From positions 1,550,001 through 1,614,000 of the forward strand of contig JADEYG010000009.1 in the NCBI GenBank assembly GCA_016906335.1: 64,000 bases of DNA, given 5' to 3'. Shown one piece after another: positions 11,718 through 55,778 of this stretch. Numbering within the stretch: the stretch's first letter is position 1; every line of letters begins with the position of its first letter. The notes under the pieces were generated by a model. That model searched no databases, was not told the DNA's origin, and saw only the letters and a program-made list of their open reading frames with translations. Source of the stretch: Novakomyces olei. Lineage: Eukaryota. The position numbers and the translations under genes were made by a program.

Positions 11718-11992
11718 TCATTTATTCATTAATTCATTTATTCATTTATTCATTTATTCATTTATTCATTTATTCATTTATTCATTTATTCATTTATTCA
11801 TTTATTCATTTATTCATTTATTCATTTATTCATTTATTCATTTATTCATTTATTCATTTATTCATTTATTCATTTATTCATTTATTCATTTATTCATTTA
11901 TTCATTTATTCATTTATTCATTTATTCATTTATTCATTTATTCATTTATTCATTTATTCATTTATTCATTTATTCATTTATTCATTTATTCA
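11718..11992. repeat. Microsatellite (TTCATTTA)n, about 34 copies
   Basis: Near-perfect 8-bp array starting about 40 bp upstream of the ATL1 ATG. Confidence 0.97.
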
Positions 11993-12146
11993 TATTGCGA
12001 AAGCCGACCTGGCATATTATGCGAATAATAAACCTGAATGTTCCTTTGTAATGCCGACAGCACAAATTCTCAAATATCCAACGATGTAGCAACAGATTAG
12101 ATAGTATATTGCTGATATATCTAATCGCTGCGTGTGTGTGTATATT

Positions 12147-30346: not shown

Positions 30347-32065
30347 TTTGATGTATATGGTGTCCGTTCAAATTCGTTCCCATATGCGGCCTTTTTCTAC
30401 CTCTCTTCCTGTTCACTTTTGTTCCTGTTTTCTTTTGCTAGTTTCCTCCTCGTTAAGCCGCCGTTCGTCGTCACGTGAAACGAAAACCCAGGTACGAAAA
30501 AAACCAAGGAAATATACGGAGAGATCCTGTAGTCTGTAGTAGATTTGTCTAGCGCATTATCGACGACTGTCTGTTTAATACAGGAATTGTAAAAGGCCTC
30601 AAAGGGCGCAAAAGGTCAGGTGACGTGCACGATGAATTTTAAGATACACGTGTGCCGGGCAAAGCGGAGTATTTTATGCGCTGATTCACTGACTGCAGTG
30701 GCAACTGATAGTGCCAGCAGTTAGGTGAAACAAGACTTTAGCCGTCTGTGCGACAGTGCCAAAACTAGTACCGAAACCGCGGCGCTCACTGTGTTGACAC
30801 TATAAACAGTATTTAGTGCCATAATACGGGGATACGTTGCCCTGGCAACCACGGCTCAATAGGGAATTCTGAAGGTCAGGGTTTTCTACCTGTCAGCAGG
30901 GTTTTTTGTTTGGTCAGGGTGTTCTCTTTAGAAATTCCATTGCGTTTAGACGTGTTTTACGCCTATAATAATCGCAAAGGAATCTAGTACTGCGCTGTTC
31001 ACGTAATATTCGTTCCCGAAGTTTAAGCGTGGCACAAACGGTATCGGGGATCAGGAGGAGCAGCAAGATTAGCGTTGCGCTTATCGGTCTCAGCATTAGA
31101 TAAAGAAAGCAAAGCCGACTCATACTGACTATTACCGTCTGTCTCGAGACACATCAAGACACAGTCTCTGCCAAAGGTTTACCGAAGAAGGCCATTGCCA
31201 CATCGTACTCGAACGGGTCTGACTCGAACGGTTCTGAATCCACAGCATTCTCCCTCGATAGTGTGACTCCTTGGCTGTTTGTTGTTTACGCGAGACAAAA
31301 AGGCACGAGGCCTTAAACTCTTTGGTGCAGGCCAGCACGGCGCGTCTGTTAGACTTGAAGATCTGTTTATCGTTTACAAAGCCCAAATTGTGATCAAACT
31401 GATTTGCCACCGATCTTTCTTGTCCGACACCAAACACAGTGCCGCCAACCCGTATTTGCGTTGTGTAGCACAACGCAGGCAATTTGAAAGTTTCCTTGAC
31501 GTGCTCATTGCATGTGTATGAACTTTTAAGCTGTCCCTGTTTGTGTTTGCCGCGTCAATAATGTTGGCATAGCATCGCTAGTCTCCCGGCTTGTCTGTGT
31601 ATGTGTGTGTTTGGTGCCAACTCTCTCTAGTTGCGAATCCTGTATGAGACCCGACTCTTTTGTCTCTCGGACTTTTTCTACAATTTTTTACTCTGGTTTG
31701 CCGCGTGGGATCGAATGATCTGTGCTGTCTCTCCTCTCTGTTTTGAAAAGACTATTTCCTCCAGTAACCCGACCCCCAGTTTCTTGTCTACGCCAACACT
31801 GGTTTCTGATTGAATTATTGTTGACGTACTGTTAGAGGAAAGCATCGTTTCTGGGTTGCTTTGCTCTGCTCTATATATATATATTTTTTTTTAATCTAGC
31901 TCCTTTTATTTGGATAAACATTTGCGATCTGCGTGGAAGCTGGCTTGTCTGTCAAGTTGCCTCTGTGTGGCAGGTCTTTTATCATTGCCAGTGAGAGGGA
32001 CGATTTCCTAAGAAAGAATAAAAAACATTGAAAATCACAAAAAACGAAAAGCGAGCAAATCAGCA

Positions 32066-34093
32066 ATGAGTATGAGCGTCGCCGGACATGGCTCGATGAA
32101 GACTCTGACAAAGTCGGCTTCCGGCAACGAAGGCAATGACGAGTCCAAGATCAATGCTGACCGAATCCGGCCCGGATCCAAGATTGGTAGGTTTGTGGTA
32201 AAGCAGCAGCTCAACCATGGCTCGTACGGGACCGTTGTCCTGGCAACCAAAGCAAACCCTAAAGACAGCCCACACATTCCCAACACTGTGGCTATCAAAT
32301 GCGTGGCACGCGCAATAAATCCTAATCTCAACGACAACGATATGGAGCTCGTTATACTGAACAAGGTCAAAACTGCTCAGGCGGAGGAAAAGCGCTCTGC
32401 TGATCCCAGTCTGCCAGGGTATCAAAATGTTGTTGAATACTATGAGCATTTTTGCGACGACTACCACGTGTACATAGTGCTCGACTATTGCTCTTTGGGC
32501 GACGTTTATGAGGCGCTAATGCTGGGCAGATTGCCTTCGCCTGTCTCTGCGCCAGAAGCAATTCGTGCTCTTGTTCTCCAGATCATTGATGGCCTGGAAT
32601 TCTTGCACTCTATCGGTATTTATCATCGGGACTTGAAGCCAGAGAACCTTTTGCTTCAGCAGGACGGAGATAACGTGCTTTGCAAGATATCAGATTTCGG
32701 ACTTGCCTGTAACACTGCTCGAGCTCGTGACTTTGGAACGGGCAGTGAGCGGTACATGTCCCCCGAACAGTACGGAGAATCTTACGCTTCTACCGTCTTT
32801 GATGACAGTGACGCAGAGGCCTCTAGAAGCGTGGGTTACGATGCTGAAAAGGTGGATATATGGGCACTGGGAATTTGCATTCTGAACTTTTTGTTTCAAA
32901 AGAATCCCTTTAAAACCCCGAGCGAGCAAGATCCTATCTTTTCTGATTATTTGCGGGACCAAATGAGCCTGTTTGACGTTTTCCCCATAATGTCGACTGA
33001 CTCCTTTCGGGTTTTACAAGCCTGTTTGGCCATTGACCCGGGCAAAAGGTCACTGCAGGCTGCTCGAGAAGCAGTACTCGCTGTGCAGGAGTGGACAACA
33101 GACGGGGAAGTGTTGGAGGACGAGAGCGGCCCCTTGGACCAGCAAGCTCAGCTCTGTCTCGGCGACTTTTCTGAGGATGGACAAGTTCCTGGAACGACTG
33201 CCAATCGACAGCCTATTCGTACGCCGAGTATATCTGTTGCGACTTCGCCAGTGGCCTCTTCCACATTTAAATGGGCACAGACACAGGCACAGGCACAGGC
33301 GGCCGGTTTGGATATCTGTTCGCCAAAGCCTAATGGCAAAGCCAACGGAGCTTTGGGAGCTCTCTTGGAGGAAGAAGATGCTGCGTCTGATGGCGATGGT
33401 GAGGGCGATGGCGATTGCGCTATAATATTCCATACAACGCCATCAAAGAAAACCCTAAAAGGTTCCCTAAAAGGTTCCCTAAAAGGTTCCCTAAAAGGTT
33501 CGAGTGCCGATACAGGTTTGCAGGGCCAGAAACCGGTTTTCATTGCTCAAGGCGGCAACAACAGCAGCTCCTCTTCCGACTCGGGCCTGGGAACCAGCGT
33601 GGCCAGTCTGCCGTACAAGTATTCTCTGCCTCGAGCAAGTAACGCTACTGCAGCAGGAACAGACTACTTTTCCTTCCGGTCCGGTGTGGATGCTTCCCGA
33701 ACTCCACAGCCGATTCCGACAAATATGCACCGTCGCAATGCGTCAAACAGGGACTCGGCCACAGGCATAATGGCCAGTGCTCCAGCTGCGCATATAGATT
33801 TCCCTACTAGCGTGAAGGGCAACAAGGACCATTTGAAATTTGGACGGAGCTGGTGCGACTTGAGTGATAGTGACGATGACGATGACTTTGATAGCGTCGT
33901 TGGGCAGCATTCAATCTTTGAGCGCAGAGCCAATACTCCTCTTGGATTTAGGGAAAAGAGTATTGCCGGGCATGAAGGAGTCCGTGCAGAGTCTGGTGCC
34001 GTCGGGAACAAGACTCCGGGAGCGGAAAGCTCTGCTGCTGCCGGAGCAGGCTACGGCGATTGGGACGAGGAGGTTTTTACACAGGTGCTGTAG
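32066..34093 (+). CDS. KSP1: Ser/Thr protein kinase, Ksp1-like
   Basis: GSYGTV, VAIK, YHRDLKPEN, DFG, GSERYMSPEQ, DIWALGIC; family-like SLFDVFP and NRQPIRTPS segments. Confidence 0.82.
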   Translation: MSMSVAGHGSMKTLTKSASGNEGNDESKINADRIRPGSKIGRFVVKQQLNHGSYGTVVLATKANPKDSPHIPNTVAIKCVARAINPNLNDNDMELVILNKVKTAQAEEKRSADPSLPGYQNVVEYYEHFCDDYHVYIVLDYCSLGDVYEALMLGRLPSPVSAPEAIRALVLQIIDGLEFLHSIGIYHRDLKPENLLLQQDGDNVLCKISDFGLACNTARARDFGTGSERYMSPEQYGESYASTVFDDSDAEASRSVGYDAEKVDIWALGICILNFLFQKNPFKTPSEQDPIFSDYLRDQMSLFDVFPIMSTDSFRVLQACLAIDPGKRSLQAAREAVLAVQEWTTDGEVLEDESGPLDQQAQLCLGDFSEDGQVPGTTANRQPIRTPSISVATSPVASSTFKWAQTQAQAQAAGLDICSPKPNGKANGALGALLEEEDAASDGDGEGDGDCAIIFHTTPSKKTLKGSLKGSLKGSLKGSSADTGLQGQKPVFIAQGGNNSSSSSDSGLGTSVASLPYKYSLPRASNATAAGTDYFSFRSGVDASRTPQPIPTNMHRRNASNRDSATGIMASAPAAHIDFPTSVKGNKDHLKFGRSWCDLSDSDDDDDFDSVVGQHSIFERRANTPLGFREKSIAGHEGVRAESGAVGNKTPGAESSAAAGAGYGDWDEEVFTQVL

Positions 34094-34496: not shown

Positions 34497-35157
34497 AGCC
34501 AAGTATACGATTAGCAAAACCTGACCATGTAACCTTACGAGCACACTTTTATTTTTTCGCTACTTTTATTTCTTTTACTTTATTTCAGCTATGTAATAAT
34601 GGGTGCACTATGCATCCCAAACGCTTATACTTTCGGCTGCTTGCCGGCCGGCCCTTTACTAGAAAACCCTAACTCCAAATTTCAGCCAATAAGAATTACG
34701 CTAACGGTGATCAATACAGGCTCGACGTTGGTACGCACGCACGCACGAATAAATATATATATTAATATAAAAATAAATACGCACACACACATTAAAAACA
34801 TCAATCTGGAGTAGACGGATCGTTAATAGGTCGAAACGGAAACGCACGGCCGTTGAGACAGACGCTCATTCAACTGTCAGGGAGACTCCGGAATTTACCG
34901 ACTGTTTCCTTAAAATTCCCCCTCTCCGTCTGTACTCGTGCTCCCTGTTTCTGTACTTTGTGATTCGTAAGGAGGGGACCTTTCGAGTTTTTATACAATT
35001 TTTTCCAGTCCGTTTTTGCAGTACGTTTTGTCAGTACTCTACGTTGTATTTCACTCAGTCTACTGCAGTTTGTCGTGTGCTCTTTAAGTAATTGCAACGG
35101 CGGCGACGGGTTTTAAACAACATTTATTTCTACTAATTGTTTGCCGACAAGACTGCT

Positions 35158-35208
35158 CTAAAAAGCTCCTAAAAGCTCCTAAAAGCTCCTAAAAGCTCCT
35201 AAAAGCTC
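35158..35208. repeat. Tandem repeat, 10-bp unit (AAAAGCTCCT)n
   Basis: About 5 copies just upstream of the KGD1 ATG. Confidence 0.9.
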
Positions 35209-35241
35209 AAGCTTTACAACTGCCAAAAAAAATTTGACGCA

Positions 35242-39936: not shown

Positions 39937-42900
39937 ATGACGGCATCGCCGCGGATTCCTTCTACTGTATGTGTAAGCTGCCGATTTTTTGTTTAGCCCT
40001 TCAACTCGACCTGAAAGTTGCACACTGGTTTTATTCTACTCGTTTCTATATTTCTTCACTTGTTTAATTATTCTATTTAATTCCTTTTATTTGATTTGAT
40101 TGATTTGATTTGATTGATTTGATTGATTTGATTGATTTGATTGATTTGATTGATTTGATTGATTTGATTGATTTGATTGATTTGATTGATTTGATTGATT
40201 TGATTGATTTGATTGATTTGATTGATTTGATTGATTTGATTGATTTGATTGATTTGATTGATTTGATTGATTTGATTGATTTGATTGATTTGATTGATTT
40301 GATTGATTTGATTGATTTGATTGATTTGATTGATTTGATTGATTTGATTTGATTTGATTTGATTGATTTGATTGATTTGATTGATTTGATTGATTTGATT
40401 GATTTGATTGATTTGATTGATTTGATTGATTTGATTGATTTGATTTGATTTGATTTGATTTGATTGATTGATTTGATTTGATTATTTGAGTTATTTGAGT
40501 TATTTGATTTGATTTGATTTATTTGATTTGATTTGATCTGGTTGATTTGATTTGGTTGATTTGATTTGGTTTATTTGATTTATTTGATTTAATTTATTTG
40601 ACTTATTGATTTGATTTAATTACATTAATTTCATTAAATTATATTTAATTTCCATTGGAGCTGACAGGCAGGGCCCCACACGGCCGCTATTTTCCCGTGC
40701 CCGGCCCGTGAGGCTGGCGGAAGAGACTCCCGACACCCCCGACAGCGGCAGCGGCAGCGGAGACGATCCCGCTGGCCGACCAGAAGGAGCAGTCGGGGCG
40801 GCAGCGCCGTATACAAACTGGTCGTACCCTTACCAGAAAACCCCTGTCCCCCGTCGGCCGAAGCCGGCAGCGGCAGCGGGACTTTTACTGCCAATTGCCG
40901 CTCAGAATGCGCCACCGCCGACAGTTTTGCCCGATCTTTTGGCCGACGTGGAAACGGACGAAGGCAATTCGTCGTCGTCCAGTTCAATAATGCACAAGGC
41001 AAGTTTGTCTGTCGCATCGAGCAGTACAAATTCGTATAAAAATACGAATACAAACACAAATTCGTATAAAAATACCAGTACAAATAGCGGAGCAGACGGC
41101 AGCGGTCCGCCGCCTGATTTTGCGCCTCCGCCACCGCCATTGCCGATGAGCGGCAATCGCCCTTCTTTCCTTGTGAGTCCGTCAGAGCTGAGGTCAGTTT
41201 ACGCAGACTCTGAGGCGCCAATGAGCCCCTTTGGCCCAATTTCGCCACTCGCACGAGGCGATATTGCCTACTCGCTGGAGCAGATAAGCGACGAGTACAT
41301 TGCCGGCGAGTCTGTATACTGTGCGTACCTGCAAACAGCCATTTCTGCAGTGGCCGAGTGTCCTGTTCCTCTTCTCGCAGAGGGAACAATGCACTGCCTT
41401 TTGCGAATGCACCGAATCTCAGAGACGATGCTTAAAGCCGTCACTGCCGATACCAATCATTTGAACCTTCTCGCGTCTTTTATCGTGTTTCCTGAGCTCG
41501 CACGGTCACTGTACGTGGAGTACGTGACAATGTTTCGACTCGGGTGGGACGTTTATCCCTACGAGAAAGAAATGGGAAAAAATTGGGAAGAAAAGGGAAG
41601 AAATGGGGAAGAAATGGGAAGAAATGGGGAAGAAATGGACCAAAATGGGGAAGAAATGGACAAAAATGGAGAAAAAAAGGACAAAAATCAGGAAAAAAAT
41701 GACAAAAATCAGGACAAAAAAGAGACAAACGAGACAACCAGCAACGAGGCAGGAGCAGTAGCGCATATTAGAGCAGTGCTTTCTACACTGCCGCCAGTCG
41801 AGCAGTCGCTCGATTGGCTGCTTAAACGGCCGCTCGCCCGGCTTCGTTCGTACACGTGTATATACAAAAAACTGCTTCAGCTCGGACTGCAGAACGACAC
41901 AGCCTACCGCGCCGAGGCAGAGCGGCTGCAAGTGGCACACGATAAAGTGTACAGCCTTTTGAGGCTCGCAAGAGCCAAATTTAGTGAGGAGAGGAGGCGA
42001 TTGAGTGGCTCAAGGCGGAGCGGCCTCTGTATCCGCTCCGGACTGTGGTCTGAGCAGATGCGTTTGGCCGCGAGAGCTCTGCCCTCAGAGCTGGACGCGT
42101 CACGTACACGTGACGCGTTGTCTTTAGAACCTGTAGAAAATTACGCGTTGGATAATATTTACGCGTCAGAAAATTACGCGTCAGAGAGGCAGATTGTAGC
42201 GCGACGCGTTTTTGCCTTTAGTATGATGCACACTGCCTCGGCGACTCTGACGCAGTGCGCACGCGTCGAGTGCATTGTCCTCACTGACGCGCTCGTCGTG
42301 GCCGCGCGCCCACGCGTCGGAAAGCTGAGGCTCATGTTCCCACCTATCCCACACTCGGCGTGGGCTGTCAGTAAAGAGGACAAGAGTGGCGTCGAGATTG
42401 CCGTTTATGGCCAAGAGCGGATGCAGTTTGCGGAAGAGCAAAAGAGCAGTGGAAATGACGAGGCGATTAGGAGCGAATCGCTGCCAATTCTCGATCTACG
42501 CGAGTTTGTAGACGTTTTGCACGGAGTACACGTGCAAACTGCCAAAGGCAGTGCCAAAGGCACTGCCGAAGGCAGTTTTTTAGGCAATTTTGGAGGCAAT
42601 TTTGGAGGCAGTTTTGTACACAATTCTACTTCCAATTCTACAGCCAATTCTATACACAATTCTGGTGCCGGCGGAATTGCCGGCGGAATTGCCGGTCTGT
42701 CGCTGAGCCAAAGCCAGGCGAGTCTGGCTACAGACTCGCTGCATTCAGTGCGCAGTTCAGCAATAAGCGGCAGCGGCAATTTGTACCTTTATCAGACCAG
42801 CGGCAGCTCTAACGGCAGCTCTGGCCGGCGGACCAGTAGAGCAGCAGCAGTCCCGAGTCCTATTGTGGAAGAGTTTGGAGGAGAGGAGCAGTCAGAGAGA

Positions 42901-44130
42901 GAGAGGGCAGAGAGAAATACGGCAGAAAGAGAGAAATCAGAAAGGTTGGACATAGCAAAAACCGGCAAAGGCAGTGAGCCTGTGCCTCTTGACGAAGCGT
43001 CGCCAAGTGCGAGCGAAAAGTCGTGGAAACCGCTGCGCCTGTCCCTTTCGTCCCGCAGCGGTTTTACCAGCTCGTCAGGGTTTTCCAGCAGCCGAACGAT
43101 TGACAGGATCGAGGAAGAGGAGGAGGAGGAGAATGAGAAGGGAGAGAGGACAAAAGAGAGGACAATAGAGAGAGAAGAAAGAGGAGAAAGAGAAGAGAGT
43201 CAAAGAGAAAGAGGAGAAAGACAAGCGACTCTGGAAAAGACAGCCGGTGGCAGAACGGGGACAGTACGGCCGGCAGAGTTAAAGGAAAATGCCTCCAAAG
43301 TAAACGAGCTGAGCGAGACGGGAGACGGGCAGGAAAACAGAGGTCTAAAGGCAAAAGGCCAAGAGAGAGAGGCAGAAACCAGTGGTAAAAAAGCCAGTAC
43401 TCGCCCGCCCGAGCCTGGCGAATCGCAAGGTCCCTCCCTTAGCCCTGAGCCGTGTGGGTTCGAGTGCGGTCTGCCTGGGATAAACTCTTCGCCGCTGGTA
43501 GCCTCACCGAGAAAATGGGCTCGAGCCTCGATCCTGCTGGGCGGTAAACCCGGCCAGGAGAACCAGGGTCTCTTGTTTGCAAGCAGACGGCTTTCTTATG
43601 GCAAAAGAAAGGGGCCAATGACAAAAGGCAGTAGTGACTGGGCCGAGTCTTGCAGCAACAGTATTTCTGCCATTGAGTGCTCTCCGAAACGCGACCATTC
43701 ACAGATGAGTGCCTCTTCAGCTTCTGCTGCTTTTGCTTCTGCTATTGACGCTTCTCCCTCTAAAAAACCGGCAATGCTGAGCCGAAACTGTGGTGAAAGG
43801 CACCTCGACAGGTTCCCGCGGCCGCCAATGTCTATTTTACAGGATTTTACAGTGGGAGAAAAGGCCTCTACAGTGGCAGAGCAGGCAGAAATGCCTGCAG
43901 TATATGGACCTGTGCCGTGGAGGCCAAACGGGTCTGGCGCCAGCAGCGAGAGCCGTTGGCCTGGTGCAGCAGATACTGCGGCTTCGAATCCCCGTGGCCA
44001 CGGCCCTCAAATACGGAGGTCGGGGTCTGTACGTAAAGCTAATTATACAGCTACGGGGGCACCAGCGCGGAGGACGCGGATGTTTTCACGGTTTATTGGT
44101 GGCTTTTCACGCCGGAAGAATCGCGATTGA
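39937..44130 (+). CDS. DH (RhoGEF)-like domain protein with long disordered regions; exons 39937-39966, 40672-44130
   Basis: EYIAGESVYCAYL and SLDWLLKRPLARLRSY resemble DH conserved regions 1 and 3. Intron GTATGT..CTGACAGGCAG gives an in-frame ATG exon. Confidence 0.7.
40090..40620. repeat. Intronic microsatellite (TTGATTGAT)n decaying to (TTGAT)n
   Basis: About 530 bp inside the 705-nt intron of the DH-like gene. Confidence 0.97.
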
Positions 44131-44827
44131 AGCGGCAGTTATGATTTTGTTTTCATCTAGTTGATTTTGTTTGTTTAATTGCTGTTGTTTAATTGCTGTT
44201 GTTTAATTGCTGTTGTTTAATTGCTGTTTGTCTGTTTGTTATTTGTCTAATTGCTGTTTGTCTATTTGTAGTTTGTCTTATTTTATTATTTATTTATTAA
44301 TCAATTTTGGCTAAACAGAATGGTTCTTTAAAGGACACATGATTCTTTTCTTTTAATCAGTTTTTGGCTCATTTTTCTGTTGATTGGTGCTTGTAACCTT
44401 TTGACATGCGGCTTTGGGGTTGTTTGTTGTAGTGCACGGCTGTTGTTTATAGAGCTCGTCGATAGCCGGGATACATTCGTATAGTATAATTCACTATTGG
44501 CTTTAAATGACCGCCGTTTGTCAGGCATTGTAATGAAACTAGCGGCGTTTGCTTTGTGATACTGCTAATAAACCCATAAACCCATAAACGCATAAACCCT
44601 AACCCTACAAAACCTACAAACTTTGGTCTTCCTTTAGTCACAGGAACAGGCTGATTAGTCATACTGATTAGTCACAACGACTTGCTATATAAGTAGAGTA
44701 GTAATAATGTACGCTAATATATTCATAAACGGGACTAATAAAGTCGCGTGGCCATCAACACGGCCATCACCGCGGCCATCCGACTCGGCAATAAACAGAC
44801 TAACCAGAAAACCCTTTACAACGAGCA

Positions 44828-46030
44828 ATGGCGGACAGGGCGCCGCTTATCGATCTAATGCGGGGCACTTGTGTCTTTGCTATGATTATGGCGAATTCGA
44901 GCGGCAAAGATGACGCCAGTTTCTCCCAATTGCAGCACCATAAAGGCCTCGTTACGGACCGCATAACGTTTGCCGACACGATTTCCCCGCATTTCTTATT
45001 CCTCTCGGGAATGTCGATCGGTGCACGTGACTTGGGTCACGTGCACAGACGCGTCGGCTATACGCGAGCTGCGGTGCAGCGCTGTGCAAAGCTGTTTGCC
45101 ATTGGCGTCGCGTTTAACGCGTGCACAAACGCGTTAAAGGGCGAAAAGTTACGCGTACGCGTTCCCGGCGTTCTACAGAGGAGTGCGTTAGCTGGCGCGG
45201 CAGTTTTGCTGCTGCCAAGCTCTGGTCCGGCTCAGTACGCGACGCCAGTCTTGCTTGGAACTGCCTGGTTTTCCGCTAATTATCTGCTCGTGGAGGCGGC
45301 CAAGGCTCGAGGCAGCGAGACAGGAGAGGAGAGAGAAGGAAGGGAGAGAGAAGAAGAGAGAGAAAAAGAGAAAGAAAAAGAAGAAAAAGAAGGAGGCAGA
45401 TTCAATGCGCAGGCAGTCATCGACAAGAGACTACTGCCAAAATCTTGTCTTTACAGTCCACAGGGAGACGATCCCGAAGGCCTTTTAGGCTCAGTGACCA
45501 CTGCTGTCGTTAATGTATGGGCCGGCCGCTTAGTAGCCCATTTTATTGCTCGCGGACACCTTTTTGGCTACAATTTAACTGCTAATTCTGTGGCTGTTGC
45601 TCTTGCCTCGTGCGGCTGTTTTCTAGCTCTACCGGCAACTGCCGTTTTGAAACGATCTGCTCCCCTAAGCAAACCGCTTTTTACGCCTACTTTTTCCGCT
45701 CATACAGTCGGTATAAGCTGCGTTTATACGGCGGCCAGTATTTTGCTCTTGCAGTGTCTCCCGACTCGCTACTGCGAGGGCCTTTTATGCCTCGGAGCTG
45801 AATCTCTTCCTGTTTTTTTGGCCTCTGATCTCTTGCGCGCTTTGCTCAGGAGACCTTTGAGCAGCGGCTCCAGCTTATGGGACCAGGCTGTGAAATTTGT
45901 AAGCAAATTCGTGCCCAATCGGCGGTGGAGGGACGCAATTGCTGGGTTTGCTGTTTCCTTGCTCTGGGCCATTATGTGGAAGGATGTGGCAAAGTGTTTG
46001 GTGCGGAACGGCATTAAACTGCGCCTGTGA
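44828..46030 (+). CDS. HGSNAT-like (heparan-alpha-glucosaminide N-acetyltransferase family) membrane acyltransferase, intronless
   Basis: IDLMRG..MIMAN, LQH..TFADTISPHFLFLSGMS, RVPGVLQR, DPEGLLG and PLSKPLFTPTF follow the family motif order. Confidence 0.85.
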   Translation: MADRAPLIDLMRGTCVFAMIMANSSGKDDASFSQLQHHKGLVTDRITFADTISPHFLFLSGMSIGARDLGHVHRRVGYTRAAVQRCAKLFAIGVAFNACTNALKGEKLRVRVPGVLQRSALAGAAVLLLPSSGPAQYATPVLLGTAWFSANYLLVEAAKARGSETGEEREGREREEEREKEKEKEEKEGGRFNAQAVIDKRLLPKSCLYSPQGDDPEGLLGSVTTAVVNVWAGRLVAHFIARGHLFGYNLTANSVAVALASCGCFLALPATAVLKRSAPLSKPLFTPTFSAHTVGISCVYTAASILLLQCLPTRYCEGLLCLGAESLPVFLASDLLRALLRRPLSSGSSLWDQAVKFVSKFVPNRRWRDAIAGFAVSLLWAIMWKDVAKCLVRNGIKLRL

Positions 46031-49820: not shown

Positions 49821-51336
49821 ATGCGTTCATCCGCAGCAATGGCGACACGATCTCTGCGCTTGGCGGTACGGTCGTTTTCTGCTTCCGCACGTAAGCACAA
49901 CAGCGGCGATGATCTGTACGCTCAGACGCTAAAGAACCTTAAAATCAACGACAAGACAAAAGTCTTGTACCAGGTATGGCTTTGCGAAGCAAATATGGCT
50001 GAGCTGACGCTTTGATATAGGGCTTTACCGGCAGACAGGGCACTTTTCACGCACAGCAAGGTATGTATTGGGCAACACGTCTTTTTTCTATTTTATAGAG
50101 ATTTTTGGTCGAACGTGATTCGGTTATGGCAATTTTATACAGAAGGCAATTTGTATAGAAAGCAATCTGTACAGAAGGCAATTTGTACAGAAAACAATTT
50201 ATACAGAAGGCAATTTGTACAGAAACATGTTTAAGCAGAAAGCAATTTGTACAGAAAACAATTTTATGCAGAAAACAATAACAATTTTGTACAGAAAACA
50301 AAAACAATTTTGTATAGAAAACAATTTTAAACAAAAACAATTTGTACAGAAAACAATTTTAAACGAAAACAATTTGTACAGAAAACAAGAGCTGCAGTTT
50401 TCTAGACTACACTTTGCCAAAGCATTGCTACTTTATTGCCATTCGTGTCTATGCAAAGAATTTTCTTTCTATTTATCACAACTTTCCCCTATTGAACAGC
50501 CCTTTTAACTATCAGCATTGGAATATAACACGAAAATCGTTGGAGGCACAAACCCCAAAAAAGCGGGCGAGCTGCATTTAGGTCTCCCCGTGTTTGGGAC
50601 AATTGCGGACGCGATGAAGGAAACAAAAGCCGACGCGTCTGCAGTATTCGTACCCCCGCCGCTTGCTGCGGGAGCCATAATGGAGGCAATTGAAGCTCAA
50701 GTTCCTCTTGTTGTCGCAATCACAGAAGGAATTCCTCAGCACGATATGCTGCGAGTGACATCGGCCTTGCGAACTCAAAACAAGACGCGTCTCGTGGGCC
50801 CAAACTGCCCTGGTGTGATTGCACCAGAGCAGTGTAAGATTGGCATTATGCCCTCGCATATTCACAAACGTGGCAAAGTGGGCATTGTCTCCCGCAGCGG
50901 GACGCTTACTTATGAGGCAGTTAATCAGACTACGCAGGTTGGATTAGGGCAGTCGCTGGTTATCGGGATGGGCGGTGATCCCTTCCCAGGGACAATGTTT
51001 CTCGATGCGCTGAGAATATTCTTGGACGATCCAGAGACGGAGGGTATTATACTGATTGGAGAAATTGGTGGGACTGCAGAGGAAGACGCTGCAGAGTTCT
51101 TGCGCCAGGAGAACTTGAAACTAGACTCGCCCAAGCCAGTTGTCGCTTTTATTGCTGGCGTGACTGCTCCACCGGGCCGCCGTATGGGCCATGCTGGTGC
51201 TATCGTGTCGGGTGGTAAGGGCACAGCTGCGTCCAAGCAGCAGGCGCTTTCTGCCGCTGGAGTAGTGGTGGAAAGAAGCCCGGCTCGACTTGGTGCAGCA
51301 CTGTATAATGAGTTTGTCAAGCGCGATCTTTTGTAG
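49821..51336 (+). CDS. LSC1: Succinyl-CoA ligase alpha subunit; exons 49821-49973, 50021-50060, 50516-51336
   Basis: [28 protein letters not shown] and [10 protein letters not shown] (phospho-His). Confidence 0.97.
50128..50388. repeat. Intronic degenerate repeat of about 17 bp (GCAATTTGTACAGAAAA)n
   Basis: In LSC1 intron 2. Confidence 0.85.
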
Positions 51337-51403: not shown

Positions 51404-51815
51404 GAGTTTGTTTGAGTGTAGATTGAGCGTAGATTGAGTGTGTTTGAGTGTAGTTTGAGCGCATTTTGTAGTTTGAGTGTAGTTTGAGTGTAGTTTGAGT
51501 GTAGAATTGTGAGTGTATATACTGTGGAATGCCAAGGACAGGCGTGTACGCTGTGCAACACCGTACGCTTTACAACAACACCGTTCGGTACAGTGTACGC
51601 TGTACAACACCGTACGCACCGTACGCTGTACAACACTGTACGGTACGCTGTACAACACCGTACGCACCGTACGCTGTACAACAACACTGTACGATACGCT
51701 GTACAACAACGCCGTTCGGTAAAGTGTACGCTGTACAACGCCGTAAGGCACGGTACGCTGTACAACAACACCGTTCGGTACGGTGTACAACAACACCGTC
51801 CGGTCGGTGTACGGT
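51404..51815. repeat. Two arrays between the convergent LSC1 and UTR4 stops: (GTTTGAGTGTA)n at 51404-51504 and a complex GTACGCTGTACAACAC array at 51545-51815
   Basis: Directly visible. Confidence 0.88.
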
Positions 51816-51817
51816 AA

Positions 51818-52569
51818 CTAATCCCTTACAGTATCAAACACTCCCTCAAACGAAGACCGCCAAGGGTCTTTAACCGTGCCCGGCTGCCGCAAAGCCAGAT
51901 TGTCCTCGCGGACAATCTGGCAGGCGTGCATGCCTGCGGCACGTGCCGCCTCTACTTCAGCCAGAACGTCTGATAAAAACAGCCATTCATCAGCGCCCGC
52001 TGCTTGCGCCGAGTCTACAATAGCGCTGTAGCTTGATTTTTCCTGCTTTGTGCCCACGCGCGTATCAAAGTAACCGGCGAAAAAAGGCCGTAGATCGCCC
52101 TGATCAGTGTGCGCAAACAGCAATTGCTGTGCGGGAACCGAACCCGAACTGTACACCCAAACGCGCTGGTTCGGTGTGTTCGTAAACGACGAGAGCGTGG
52201 GGACAACGTCCGCGTATATTGGCGCCTTGACGCGTCCAGACGCGTACGCGTCTCTCCATATTAACCCCTGTAGAGCCTTGAAAGGGCCGTACTTTGCATT
52301 CTGCGAGTGCAGCTCTTCTACTCGCGCGATCAGTGCGTTCGCTGACGCGCGAGTACGCTCGTCAGCGAACGCAGAGACCACGTTCTCCTGAAACTCAGAG
52401 TCGGACCAGTGCTCTGTGATGTAGTGCCGATACTCGCGCGCAGCGTACGGGAACAGTACGTCTGTGACAAAGGACACGGGCGTTACCGTACCCTCTTTGC
52501 CTGTGTCAGCCTTGACTTGAATTTGAGCTTACCAATGTCGAGCAGCAGGTGCTTTATACGGGACGCCAT
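51818..52569 (-). CDS. UTR4: Enolase-phosphatase E1 (methionine salvage, HAD family); exons 52569-52533, 52494-51818
   Basis: LLDIEGTVTPVSFVTDVLFPYA, KALQGLIW, YSSGSVPAQQLLF and WLFLSD..EV.AA. Confidence 0.95.
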
Positions 52570-52929
52570 TGCCGTACAATGGCACTGACAGAGCGGGCGA
52601 ACGTTGTGCCGTTTACTATAGCGAATTCGCGCTGACAGTGTGCTGTTTGCTGTGCTGTCGCTCTATGGGAGCATTTAAGTATAGCCAAATGTTTACAGTG
52701 CTCATATAAATTTTTATTACATCCTCCTGTTTGCAGTAGCGTACAGTTAATTATAGCGAATTGTCACTTGTTCGTACACATCTAATACGCTCCTGTTTGC
52801 AGTAAAACAGGTTCGCAGTAGCGTATAATTAATTATAACGAAATGCCACATTGTACGTATACATTTGCAGTACATTTGCAGCAACAACTCGTGTAATTGT
52901 ATCATACTTGTATGTAATTTTATCTAAAA

Positions 52930-53531
52930 TTACATACTCGTGCTGGGTTCGATTCGTGTGCGATCTTTGTCGTATAACAAACACATTACGTGTGCGATAC
53001 ACCGTACGCTCGTTTTTGCGATCGATGATTATATACGTATTTTATATTAATACGTGCAAAACAAGACGAACAGTACAACGGGCCGTGGTCGCCTTTTATT
53101 GCTTTTGAGATCTGACGAGGGCAATATAGGCGGGCGACAAAGTGTTACGGGTTCCGTGCCGCTCATCCATTGACGCGCTGCCTCTTTACTGAGCTTCGGG
53201 GGTTTGGTTGGGGTTTGAAAGCCTTTTATACTGCTCTTCCAGCCGCGCTCGCCTTTGAGGGATTCTGTCAAAGGGGAGGTAAGCAGGCGTGGCAGACCCG
53301 ACTCGAGGATCCGTGGTTCGTTCTATATAAATATAAAGGGGTTCTCTTGCAATTGCCTCCGTTTGAGTACGGATCCGCGTGAGTACGGCCGTATTATTCG
53401 CTGGGATTAACGTGCCTGGACAAGTATCAGGCACTGGCTGAGCAAAGCGCTGCCTCTCTTGCGGTTTTGAGCGGCCATTGTACCTATCGTCATATCGTTA
53501 AAGGCGGTGCTGATATTCCAGCTGTACATTT
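52930..53531 (+). ncRNA. Candidate structured non-coding RNA, identity unknown; boundaries approximate
   Basis: Many complementary stems with G-U pairs on the + strand in a GC-rich island with no credible ORF (see findings). Confidence 0.4.
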
Positions 53532-53846
53532 ATTTGTCCTTTACTGCTCTAATTGATATTTGTTAATTAATTAATTAATTAATAATTTATTTATTAATTT
53601 ATTAATTTATTAATTTATTATTTATTATTTATTTATTAATTTATTATTTATTTATTAATTTATTTATTTATTAATTTATTATTAATTTATTTATTCATTC
53701 ATTCTCTTTCTGTTTTGCCTCGTCAAAAAGACAGAGTCTCTGCTTTCTTTCCACTTTGTCTAGTGCGATTTATTGCCTTGTACTCTACAGGCTCACTGCC
53801 TCGTTATCAATTCGTGGCAACTTTTTGTGTTTAATCACGCTTCAAT

Positions 53847-55778
53847 ATGGCAGACGAGCTGAACGGCCCATCGGCAGTCCGAGCACCGTCTCCGCCTGCA
53901 GCGGCGTCTCAAGAAAAACCGGAGACGCTCAGATCCGTGTCCCAGCCAACACTCTCGGACCAGTTACAAAGGGTAGAAATATCGACAGAAACAGAAGCTG
54001 GAGACACGAAACCAGTGTCGCCTGACCCCCGGACTTGCTCGACTTTTGCCTACAATCGAAGCAAAGACCTTGCTTTAAGCAATGTAAATGCTGCTCGAAG
54101 GCCGCCTAATGCCCCTCTTTTCCCAGCCGGATCCGAGGATCGCCGGACGCCGTCTCCGGCCTCGAGCTTCTCCACAACTGGACCAAACAAGACAAGGCCT
54201 TCACCGGGAATAAGCGGGCTCCATACGAGCGCACAGGAACGGTTCCGGGCCTTTCAGCAGCAGCGAATGCGATCAAAGTCCGATGCGAGTATTGCAAACA
54301 GCAACAGCAATAATAATATTACCAACAAACCTAATGACAGCAACAATGCAAACAATAATGTAAACAATAATAATGAGAGCAGCAGCCCTTTCAACACCAA
54401 ACCTGTTGACCAAAGGACGCTAGTTGCCCAGGAAATGGCAGCAGCGAGCCCTGCTCCAGCAGCCTCTACACAGTCTCCAAAACTGCCTTCGCCAGCAATA
54501 GGGATGGGTGGAGGACTGGCAGCGAGGAGAAATGCGCCCGGCAGACTGCCTGGTCCACCTGGAGCCAATGCGCCCAAGCCTGCAGTCGGCGGCATGGCAG
54601 CCCGTCGAGGCCTTTTGCTCAACGGCAATCCGACACTAAACAGCCGTGGCAGAGCAAATCCTGCTTCTTCAGCCGTCTCTGGAAGCCAGTTTGGACAGTT
54701 TTCTGATATTGTTGATGCCAGCACGGGGACACTGAATTTTAAAAACAAGGCGGTTGTGAATGCAGACGGAGTCAATTTCTCTTCAGGCAAAAAGTTCCGT
54801 ATAAACCTGGGCGAGTTTGAAAAACTGGACGAGCTGGGCAAAGGCAATTATGGTGTAGTGTACCGCGTTCTGCATAAGCCGAGTGGTGTGCAGATGGCGT
54901 TGAAGGAAGTCCGGCTGAGTCTCGACGAAACGACGTTTCGCCAAATAATAATGGAGCTCGATGTCCTCCACAAGGCAACCAGCCCGAATATTGTCGAGTT
55001 TTATGGGGCCTTTTTCGTAGAGGGATGCGTCTTTATCTGCCTCGAGTACATGGACGCTGGATCCGTGGATAAACTGTACCAGCATGGCGTTGAAGAACCC
55101 TATCTCGCTCGGATAACAGAGGCAGTTGTACGAGGCCTGCTGAGTCTCAAACAGGACCACAACATTATCCACCGGGATGTTAAGCCCACAAACGTGCTTG
55201 TAAATACAAAGGGCCAAATCAAGATTTGCGATTTCGGAGTATCCGGCAATTTAGTGGCCTCGATTGCCAAAACGAATATTGGCTGCCAGTCTTACTATGC
55301 GCCTGAGCGGATTCAGAGCTCCTCGGGCGAGGCGAATACGTATAACGTGCAGGCAGACATTTGGTCTTTGGGCCTGAGCATTGTGGAAATGGCTGTCGGG
55401 GGGTACCCTTACCCAGCAGAGACTTATTCCAGTATCTTTGCACAGCTAAATGCAATCTGCGAGGGAGAACCGCCCGCTCTACCCGCCGAAAGGTACTCCC
55501 AAGAAGCCTGTGATTTTGTCAAACAGTGCCTGCAAAAGAACGCTGCTCGACGGCCTGGGTACCACGAGCTGCTAGAGCATCCCTGGCTCAAGCGGTACCG
55601 TGACGACAGCTCTATCGATCTCGCTGCTTGGGTCAAGAACCGATCAGAGACTGCTCAGGCAGCAAAGAACGCACGACCGGCTCCGGCTCTGCATAAAGTC
55701 AATCTGGACGAAGCAGGACAGCATTCGCCTTTACTCCAACAGCAGCCCGCTGCTTCTACTGCTCAGCATGAAGGCTGA
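53847..55778 (+). CDS. PBS2: HOG-pathway MAP kinase kinase Pbs2/Wis1
   Basis: GLAARR motifs, GKGNYGVV, HRDVKPTN, activation loop GNLVASIAKTNIGCQSY and YPYPAETYSSIFAQLNAI. Confidence 0.96.
   Translation: MADELNGPSAVRAPSPPAAASQEKPETLRSVSQPTLSDQLQRVEISTETEAGDTKPVSPDPRTCSTFAYNRSKDLALSNVNAARRPPNAPLFPAGSEDRRTPSPASSFSTTGPNKTRPSPGISGLHTSAQERFRAFQQQRMRSKSDASIANSNSNNNITNKPNDSNNANNNVNNNNESSSPFNTKPVDQRTLVAQEMAAASPAPAASTQSPKLPSPAIGMGGGLAARRNAPGRLPGPPGANAPKPAVGGMAARRGLLLNGNPTLNSRGRANPASSAVSGSQFGQFSDIVDASTGTLNFKNKAVVNADGVNFSSGKKFRINLGEFEKLDELGKGNYGVVYRVLHKPSGVQMALKEVRLSLDETTFRQIIMELDVLHKATSPNIVEFYGAFFVEGCVFICLEYMDAGSVDKLYQHGVEEPYLARITEAVVRGLLSLKQDHNIIHRDVKPTNVLVNTKGQIKICDFGVSGNLVASIAKTNIGCQSYYAPERIQSSSGEANTYNVQADIWSLGLSIVEMAVGGYPYPAETYSSIFAQLNAICEGEPPALPAERYSQEACDFVKQCLQKNAARRPGYHELLEHPWLKRYRDDSSIDLAAWVKNRSETAQAAKNARPAPALHKVNLDEAGQHSPLLQQQPAASTAQHEG

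Follow-up and report, generated by a model that had tools for sequence, protein, structure and literature searches.

A GC-rich block upstream of a PBS2-type kinase gene, most likely part of a long 5′ leader free of start codons

The GC-rich, non-coding block that lies upstream of a PBS2-type MAP kinase kinase gene is most likely, judging from its base sequence, part of a long 5′ leader of that gene from which start codons are absent, and not a new structured RNA gene. Precisely, we hold with moderate confidence that the block is the upstream, GC-rich part of a PBS2 leader that lacks upstream AUGs and that possibly holds an intron. All positions given below refer to the window, that is, the whole 64-kb stretch of DNA that was analysed.

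The locus and its GC-rich block

The block and the two genes on either side of it are the following:

51818-52569, minus strand: HAD-type hydrolase gene (UTR4 in the earlier note), from its ORF and Pfam, divergent from PBS2
53064-53490, plus strand: GC-rich core, non-coding, 427 bp at 0.53 GC, from GC segmentation and the composition profile
53847-55778, plus strand: PBS2-type MAP kinase kinase CDS, 643 aa on translation, with a Pfam Pkinase match at E 1.1e-58

The divergent intergenic region between the hydrolase gene (minus strand) and PBS2 (plus strand) measures 1277 bp, and the GC-rich block is inside it. The earlier note had named the two flanking genes, and its label for PBS2 stands: the plus-strand gene encodes a MAP kinase kinase, the N-terminal part of which matches, by sequence search, proteins named MAP kinase kinase PBS2 in their sources; that search brought up distant relatives only. 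The label UTR4 is right only approximately. The minus-strand gene does encode a HAD-type hydrolase, but the name is unconfirmed because the score of the Pfam Hydrolase match (E 4.8e-5, 24.3 bits) is just below the cut-off of 26.4. In the model of this gene that we read by eye, the start codon is at 52569-52567, exon 1 is 37 nt long, exon 2 extends to 51818 and the intron between them has 32 nt (52532-52501, GTAAGC...CTGACACAG). Introns occur in the genes of the window, and LSC1 was modelled with two of them, at 49974-50020 and 50061-50515. The second LSC1 intron, which ends in TTTAACTATCAG, is AT-rich and packed with microsatellites.

The organism is a distant ascomycete, neither a Candida nor a well-annotated budding yeast. 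Among the best 120 of 8000 scored matches, the KGD1 protein of the window had 67-69% identity to its best named relatives (Saitoella, Savitreella and Protomyces) and 86% identity to one protein in public read assemblies.

A GC-rich block set in AT-rich flanks, as the earlier note had described it, is present: the region 53064-53490 stands at 0.53 GC, against 0.12-0.40 in the flanks. This value equals the level of the coding regions and exons of the window; the 100 nt that precede other start codons mostly range from 0.23 to 0.52 GC, and this comparison counts against a leader. We also agree that the block has no credible ORF. The only ATG-started ORF of at least 40 aa in it is at 53407-53529 on the minus strand, and among the stop-to-stop frames the longest are two of 103 and 91 aa on the minus strand, those of the plus strand not exceeding 88-89 aa.

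Absence of ATG on the plus strand and the proposed leader

The argument for a leader concerns the zone between the last plus-strand ATG upstream of PBS2 and the PBS2 start codon, together with a microsatellite that occupies part of it:

53027-53846, plus strand: 820 nt without ATG, reaching to the PBS2 start codon, proposed as the 5′ leader of PBS2
53550-53703: AT-only microsatellite made of tandem TTAT and TAATTTATTTATT units, GC 0.01-0.19

On the plus strand the last ATG is at 53025 and the first one after it is the PBS2 start codon at 53847. The gap between them is the third-longest ATG gap on this strand in the window. For the whole zone, 12.5 ± 2.8 ATGs were expected and none was found, a value reached in 0/1000 shuffles. 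The AT microsatellite is trivially without ATG, because there is almost no G in it, whereas the region 53027-53540 has 514 nt at 0.50 GC and hence allows a non-trivial test. On the plus strand of this region ATG is the sole absent trinucleotide of the 64; its count was zero against 7.65 ± 2.13 in one run of dinucleotide shuffles (0/2000 as low) and against 7.85 ± 2.13 in a second shuffle run (0/1000). The narrower region 53064-53500 likewise has none, against 5.6 expected (p 0.0005), and three sub-segments, each devoid of ATG, gave p values of 0.015, 0.046 and 0.054. The minus strand of 53027-53540 is normal in this respect, with 5 ATGs for 6.5 expected.

We considered how often such a loss occurs elsewhere in the 64 kb. 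Out of 657 GC-matched windows of 511 nt, 16 are ATG-free on one strand, and they fall into four clusters: two in a low-complexity coding repeat (42501-43650), one that is the PBS2 island itself and one at 30677-31511, a similar ORF-less island upstream of another plus-strand kinase gene (at 32066). When the ORF starts listed in the window are ranked by the length of the ATG-free stretch upstream of them, PBS2 comes first with 822 nt, followed by 632 (KGD1), 509, 467 and 351 nt (the kinase gene), most of the others having 4-260 nt. The entry of 509 nt belongs to an 86-aa minus-strand ORF (41766-41506) that is likely spurious, being inside the plus-strand coding repeat. The island at 30677-31511 has no adjoining start codon, and ATGs return 555 nt before the next ORF start. 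Since this island does not abut a start codon, ATG-free islands may arise in other ways than by scanning, unless an intron removes the intervening stretch. Either the kinase gene at 32066 may have a leader with an intron, or the island cautions us that another cause can exist.

Scanning ribosomes initiate at the first AUG. A pattern in which one strand alone is wholly devoid of AUG, as far as a start codon, characterises mRNA leaders that are scanned by ribosomes; the leader reading predicts it, and none of the others that we considered does. The position of the block agrees with the leader reading too: it is directly upstream of the PBS2 CDS and on the same strand, with no gene between them. 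The TATA-like elements at the upstream edge of the zone, the lack of a coding signal and of a known RNA family, and stems that are stabler on the plus strand also count in favour of a leader. The earlier note had offered a structured PBS2 leader as one of its options. The leader part of that proposal is supported by the strand-specific absence of ATG up to the start codon, whereas the structural part does not go beyond chance, as detailed in the next section.

The elements from which a leader transcript could be drawn are:

53030-53036 and 53040-53052, plus strand: TATA-like elements TATATAC and TTTTATATTAATA, read by eye, candidate core promoter
53088-53134, plus strand: strongest local hairpin, -20.3 kcal/mol on the plus strand and -11.7 on the minus strand
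53279-53284, plus strand: 5′ splice-site-like gag/GTAAGC from a regex scan, a candidate, the same hexamer as in the intron of the hydrolase (UTR4) gene
53324-53339: TATATAAATATAAAGG, a further TATA-like element within the island that forms one arm of inverted repeat I1, alternative start region
53379, plus strand: second 5′ splice-site candidate, cgc/GTGAGT, from the regex scan
53407-53430, plus strand: branch-point-like TTAAC, then AAG at 53424 and TATCAG at 53430, candidate 3′ intron end

The upstream TATA-like elements come directly after the last ATG, and the GC block begins about 15-35 nt further on. From the positions of the TATA-like elements we would place the transcription start between 53028 and ~53450, either downstream of 53030-53052 or, for part of the transcripts, in the region of 53324-53339. 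The transcript would include the island, then the AT microsatellite and then a pyrimidine-rich stretch, and would meet its AUG at 53847, with a leader of ~400-780 nt unless part of it were spliced out. In this scheme, selection would have removed every plus-strand ATG from the zone, and a transcript starting anywhere within an ATG-free zone would still translate PBS2. One would expect the translation of PBS2 to be reduced or adjusted by the length of the leader, by its G-U-stabilised hairpins (notably that at 53088-53134) and by the repeated motif GCGCUGCCUCU. If the upstream TATA-like elements were used, the hairpin at 53088-53134 would be near the cap and, from general knowledge of scanning, could hinder the loading of ribosomes.

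Part of the leader may be intronic. The end formed by TTAAC and TATCAG resembles the end of the second LSC1 intron, and a candidate leader intron of 146-152 nt can be drawn that ends at AAG 53424 or at TATCAG 53430. The AT microsatellite, which lies between the island and the proximal leader, may be intronic as well: after it come a pyrimidine tract and, at 53730, the first AG, and TTAAT at 53682 is a further splice-like signal. If the candidate introns were used, a part of the ATG depletion would be intronic and outside the selection exerted by scanning, so that the argument would be weaker there. The microsatellite, being upstream of the proximal 150 nt, could also be the promoter itself, in which case the leader would be short. 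A leader of the length proposed here would be unusual for a yeast-like fungus, and a search of the literature for a precedent in the 5′ UTR of the orthologue wis1 returned nothing useful.

Pairing, RNA families and the other readings of the block

The earlier note had regarded the block as highly structured. All nine of the pairings and motifs on which it relied can be read in the sequence where it had placed them, and our listing of inverted repeats independently gave three of them (I3, 53248/53268; I4, 53304/53369; I6, 53158/53468). Its observation that G-U pairs favour the plus strand also holds, because two hairpins are more stable on the plus than on the minus strand, namely the one at 53088-53134 and the one at 53248-53278 (-15.8 kcal/mol against -9.5). 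On the plus strand the former gave z -4.72 with 0/200 shuffles as good, for boundaries that were picked by eye. In general, the hairpins selected by eye had z values of -3 to -4.7, and these low values are due to selection bias.

The stretches that were folded as a whole gave values closer to those of shuffled sequences. For the 602-nt block, z was -1.87 on the plus strand (1/20 shuffles as good) and -2.09 on the minus strand (0/20), and for the core (53064-53531) it was -1.54 on the plus strand (15/200) and -1.80 on the minus strand (6/200). The 120-nt windows that start at 53060-53420 ranged on the plus strand from +1.35 to -1.37, against a background of 140 windows over the 64 kb with mean -0.39, sd 1.30 and a 5th percentile of -2.84. 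The lowest 120-nt window that touches the GC core (53020-53139, plus strand) had z -2.61, and the AT-rich 120-nt windows downstream of the core went down to -3.82. Exact inverted repeats followed the same pattern, with 16 inverted 7-mers for 9.8 ± 4.1 expected (a count reached by 8% of 500 shuffles), 4 inverted 8-mers for 2.5 expected (28% of shuffles) and no inverted 9-mer for 0.63 expected. The pairing of the island is not clearly beyond chance. The description of the block as highly structured is thus not upheld, both fold z values and inverted repeats being near chance, and the shuffle test that the earlier note had itself proposed went against it.

The comparison with the Rfam covariance models, which had been suggested as a check, was run with 4227 families on the whole 64 kb and returned no match at the gathering score. 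At E ≤ 10, four matches were obtained in 52500-53900 (E 2-9), all of them at 52504-53022 and hence outside the GC core, and all far below threshold (14.7-18.5 bits against gathering scores of 52-90). ARAGORN predicted no tRNA gene, and so the B-box-like GGTTCGATTC at 52946-52955 stands alone. Neither an Sm-like site (R-A-U3-6-G-R) nor a C box (RUGAUGA) is present on either strand of 52600-53850. A U1-like GCUUACCU on the minus strand (53290-53283) was considered and discarded, as it is the complement of the plus-strand splice-donor-like GGTAAGC and no U1 model matched it. The divergent long non-coding RNA that the earlier note had put forward (a telomerase RNA, a large H/ACA RNA or a novel one) is unsupported by these data, there being no Rfam match, folding at chance level and neither an Sm-like site nor a C box.

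One form of that idea is a separate plus-strand non-coding RNA, for instance a lncRNA transcribed upstream of PBS2 or a structured RNA of a new type, that would run from ~53070 to the AT/T-rich stretch after 53531 and would either have a function of its own or influence the PBS2 promoter by being transcribed across it. We consider it unlikely. Such a gene would be in keeping with a GC-rich block that stands by itself amid AT-rich DNA, with the TATA-like elements upstream of it, with stems that are stabler on the plus strand and with short direct repeats beyond chance. Yet a non-coding RNA has no reason to be without AUG, the fold z values are at chance level and the RNA would be one with no Rfam match, no Sm-like site and no C box.

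The direct repeats bear also on a reading of the island at the level of DNA. The most prominent of them is present in two copies:

53175-53185, plus strand: direct repeat GCGCTGCCTCT, copy 1, exact, 11 nt (repeat family D4)
53447-53457, plus strand: direct repeat GCGCTGCCTCT, copy 2, exact, 11 nt

These two copies are the only ones in the 64-kb window, and CTGCCTC occurs for a third time at 53796. Exact direct repeats are enriched in comparison with shuffles, both for k=9 (7 against 0.82, p 0.006) and for k=10 (3 against 0.20). An internal duplication of the island was tried as a candidate and rejected, since local alignment found only the 11-mer (middle-shuffle p 0.94). Such repeats could be transcription-factor sites, and the island, inside a 1277-bp divergent intergenic region, could serve the divergent UTR4/PBS2 promoter as an upstream activating region or as one that positions nucleosomes. 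We think this improbable, because it leaves the strand-specific loss of ATG unexplained and because the clear promoter-like repeats (CGTGTGCGAT, twice; 52720-52850) sit outside the island, in the AT-rich part.

The exon-like GC of the island (0.53, equal to that of coding regions) might also have been kept from a decayed coding exon or from the end of a mobile element such as a solo LTR. Scored for codon usage with 12 coding regions of the window as the training set, the best of the six frames of the island had -1.2 to +2.1, against 4.18 ± 2.70 for true frames. The minus-strand frame that is open for 103 codons scored -3.3 to +1.8, and at the top of this range it comes up to roughly the bottom tenth of true frames (0.60). 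Pfam, however, had no match at E ≤ 1 for five ORF translations of the island. A phmmer search of the 103-aa minus-strand frame against 1.84 billion representatives returned two matches (E 7.6e-7 and 1.7e-4), which we judged spurious: both are tandem DUF5979 repeats of bacterial-type surface proteins, at ~30% identity. No second copy of the island and no similar stretch was found elsewhere in the 64-kb window, and the loss of ATG on the opposite strand would again have no explanation. We regard a decayed exon or LTR as very unlikely.

The last reading is that of a discrete and stable non-coding RNA from a family outside Rfam, in its most provocative form a minus-strand telomerase RNA that writes the 11-nt repeat GGGGTTTGGTT. 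The telomerase form starts from the following sequence:

53199-53217, minus strand: telomerase-template look-alike CAAACCCCAACCAAACCCC, a 19-mer with 1.7 copies of an 11-nt unit

The compact telomerase RNA envisaged here would use CAAACCCCAACCAAACCCC as the template for the telomere repeat GGGGTTTGGTT, the pairing 53340-53332/53230-53222 as the template boundary helix and the pairing 53475-53468/53165-53158 as the enclosing helix. Several observations fit. No second copy of CAAACCCCAACCAAACCCC exists in the window even when up to 3 mismatches are allowed, and of the 261 short repeats of 1-2 copies found there it alone consists of nothing but G and T. One helix ends 3 nt upstream of it, a long-range helix of 8 bp encloses it and the fold on the minus strand has z values of -1.80 to -2.09.

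The evidence against the telomerase reading is nevertheless stronger. Short repeats of 1-2 copies are common, the 64 kb having 261, of which 21 contain a GGG or CCC run. On the minus strand the boundary helix, as read by eye, includes a mismatched C-A pair, and the depletion of ATG points to the plus strand, not the minus strand, as the one under constraint. No Sm-like site is available on either strand of 52600-53850, the island has ~450 nt where the RNAs of the Yarrowia clade have ~950 nt, and no telomerase model of Rfam matched it, whether at the gathering score or with the limit relaxed to E ≤ 10. Scanned for 2.4 copies, metagenomes yielded three loci, two of which are coding repeats and one an internal microsatellite, and no telomeric array of the CAAACCCCAACCAAACCCC unit was present among the matching metagenome contigs. 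In the window itself the only telomere-like motif is AAACCCTAACCCTA (44590-44608), in a promoter. As for the literature, the yeast telomere motifs tabulated in PMC7857110 do not include GGGGTTTGGTT, the hypothetical telomere-repeat strings are absent from the main texts of PMC7857110 and PMC12449055 (the supplement of the latter may list more species), and string matches to the hypothetical telomere repeat led to unrelated papers only. Overall, we give hardly any credence to a discrete RNA of a non-Rfam family at this locus, and even less to a minus-strand RNA of which a compact telomerase RNA would be the most pointed example.

Meaning and comparison with known systems

Read as a PBS2 leader, the locus becomes a fairly ordinary one, and the result is modest, at the level of annotation, with no new kind of element. 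If the leader reading is true, the stress-pathway gene PBS2 of a little-studied ascomycete has a leader of several hundred nucleotides that is kept free of AUG, which would hint at a translational control of PBS2 like that of a few Candida regulators. It would also mean that the strand-specific depletion of ATG can flag long leaders in genomes for which transcript data are lacking; in the same window, a second such ATG-free island precedes another kinase gene.

We compared the block with three known systems. It shares with H/ACA RNAs of the snR30/U17 type an ACA (53526-53528) near its end and several hairpins on the plus strand. It differs from them in that no H/ACA family of Rfam matched it and its predicted fold has no evident hairpin-hinge-hairpin layout. 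The AUAUUCC beside the ACA does not lie on the side that the m1/m2 arrangement of snR30 would call for.

The second system is that of the telomerase RNAs. As described in the portions of PMC6746865 used here, those of the Yarrowia clade were found by a search for 1.5 repeats, are ~950 nt long and have near the 3′ end an Sm site that they need. As far as these portions go, our locus is like theirs in being intergenic and ORF-less and in having ~1.5 antisense copies of a G/T-type repeat with an adjoining helix. It is unlike theirs in that the island has no Sm site, is about half the size and has no match to the telomerase models of Rfam. Moreover, and unlike what is seen in fungal telomerase RNA, neither a pseudoknot nor a three-way junction could be recognised by eye in the island.

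The closest parallels to the leader that we propose for PBS2 are the long 5′ UTRs of Candida albicans, in a group of regulators that includes UME6. In the parts of PMC4552353 on which we draw, the 5′ UTR of WOR1 is given as 1997 nt long, without AUG-started uORFs, and as lowering translational efficiency, and those of EFG1 and CZF1 as 1139 and 1662 nt long. Like WOR1, so far as those parts describe it, PBS2 would have hundreds of nucleotides of leader before a signalling or regulatory gene and no AUG-started uORF. Some differences are to be noted: the Candida leaders were mapped by transcript data and that of PBS2 was deduced from sequence alone, the gene encodes a MAP kinase kinase where the Candida genes encode transcription factors, the organism itself lies outside Candida, and the PBS2 leader would contain a GC-rich block, an AT microsatellite and possibly an intron. 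With these differences, the locus would be a further case of the long AUG-free leader of the Candida type, in the MAP kinase kinase gene of a distant ascomycete.

Other GC-rich and ATG-free upstream regions

The window contains a second GC-rich stretch without an ORF, at 30590-31797 (GC 0.48-0.49); none of four ORF translations from it gave a Pfam match. This stretch lies in a divergent intergenic region, upstream of a protein kinase gene on the + strand (ATG 32066), and in all these respects, namely GC richness, lack of an ORF, divergent intergenic setting and position upstream of a + strand kinase gene, it is like the island that precedes PBS2, the MAP kinase kinase gene. Precisely, the + strand carries no ATG from 30677 to 31511, where 10.4 +/- 2.5 were expected (0 of 1000 dinucleotide shuffles), and the first ATG after this gap, at 31512, is overlapped by a splice-donor-like sequence, GTGTAT/GTATGA.

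Long leaders may be common in the Novakomyces olei genome, as suggested by the 631 nt upstream of the start codon of KGD1 (2-oxoglutarate dehydrogenase E1), which likewise hold no sense-strand ATG (34611-35241; 0 vs 5.2 expected, p 0.003).

Base composition, tandem repeats and telomere-like motifs

Intergenic DNA and introns throughout the window are highly AT-rich and dense in micro- and minisatellites, for which Tandem Repeats Finder returned 117 rows in 64 kb; the GC content of coding regions is 0.50-0.57. The last repeat listed here fills the space in which the 3′ ends of LSC1 and of the minus-strand HAD-type hydrolase gene converge.

Tandem repeats in the window
11718-11993: (TCATTTAT)x34, Tandem Repeats Finder example
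40089-40621: (ATTTGATTG)x59, Tandem Repeats Finder example
51595-51812: GTACGCTGTACAACACCGTACGCACC, GC-rich, period ~25-26, ~7-8 copies

An (ATAAACCC)x4 array running into AAACCCTAACCCTAC (44568-44608) precedes the ATG at 44828 by ~220 nt and is a telomere-like, or telo-box, motif within a promoter. As for the 11-nt G/T unit resembling a telomerase template, the metagenome contig L001 holds an internal microsatellite made of 3.6 copies of AACCAAACCCC (1480-1546), which shows that ordinary repeats can be built from this unit. The same contig also carries a eukaryote-like phosphatase exon.

Motifs between the hydrolase gene and PBS2

Repeated motifs were found at 52720-52998, in the AT-rich part adjoining the hydrolase gene, and probably serve the divergent promoter as transcription-factor sites. 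One further element lies closer to PBS2.

Motifs in the divergent intergenic region
52724-52845: CCTGTTTGCAGTA...TTAATTATA(G/A)CGAA, 2 copies, each ~40 nt, AT-rich part
52860-52881: TACATTTGCAG, 2 copies, AT-rich part
52955 and 52989: CGTGTGCGAT, 2 copies, AT-rich part
53697-53718: TTCATTCATTCTCTTTCT, PBS2 AUG ~130-150 nt downstream

A CNYUCNYU-type motif has been reported in 5′ UTRs for the yeast RNA-binding protein Ssd1, and we take the PBS2-proximal element to be similar to it.
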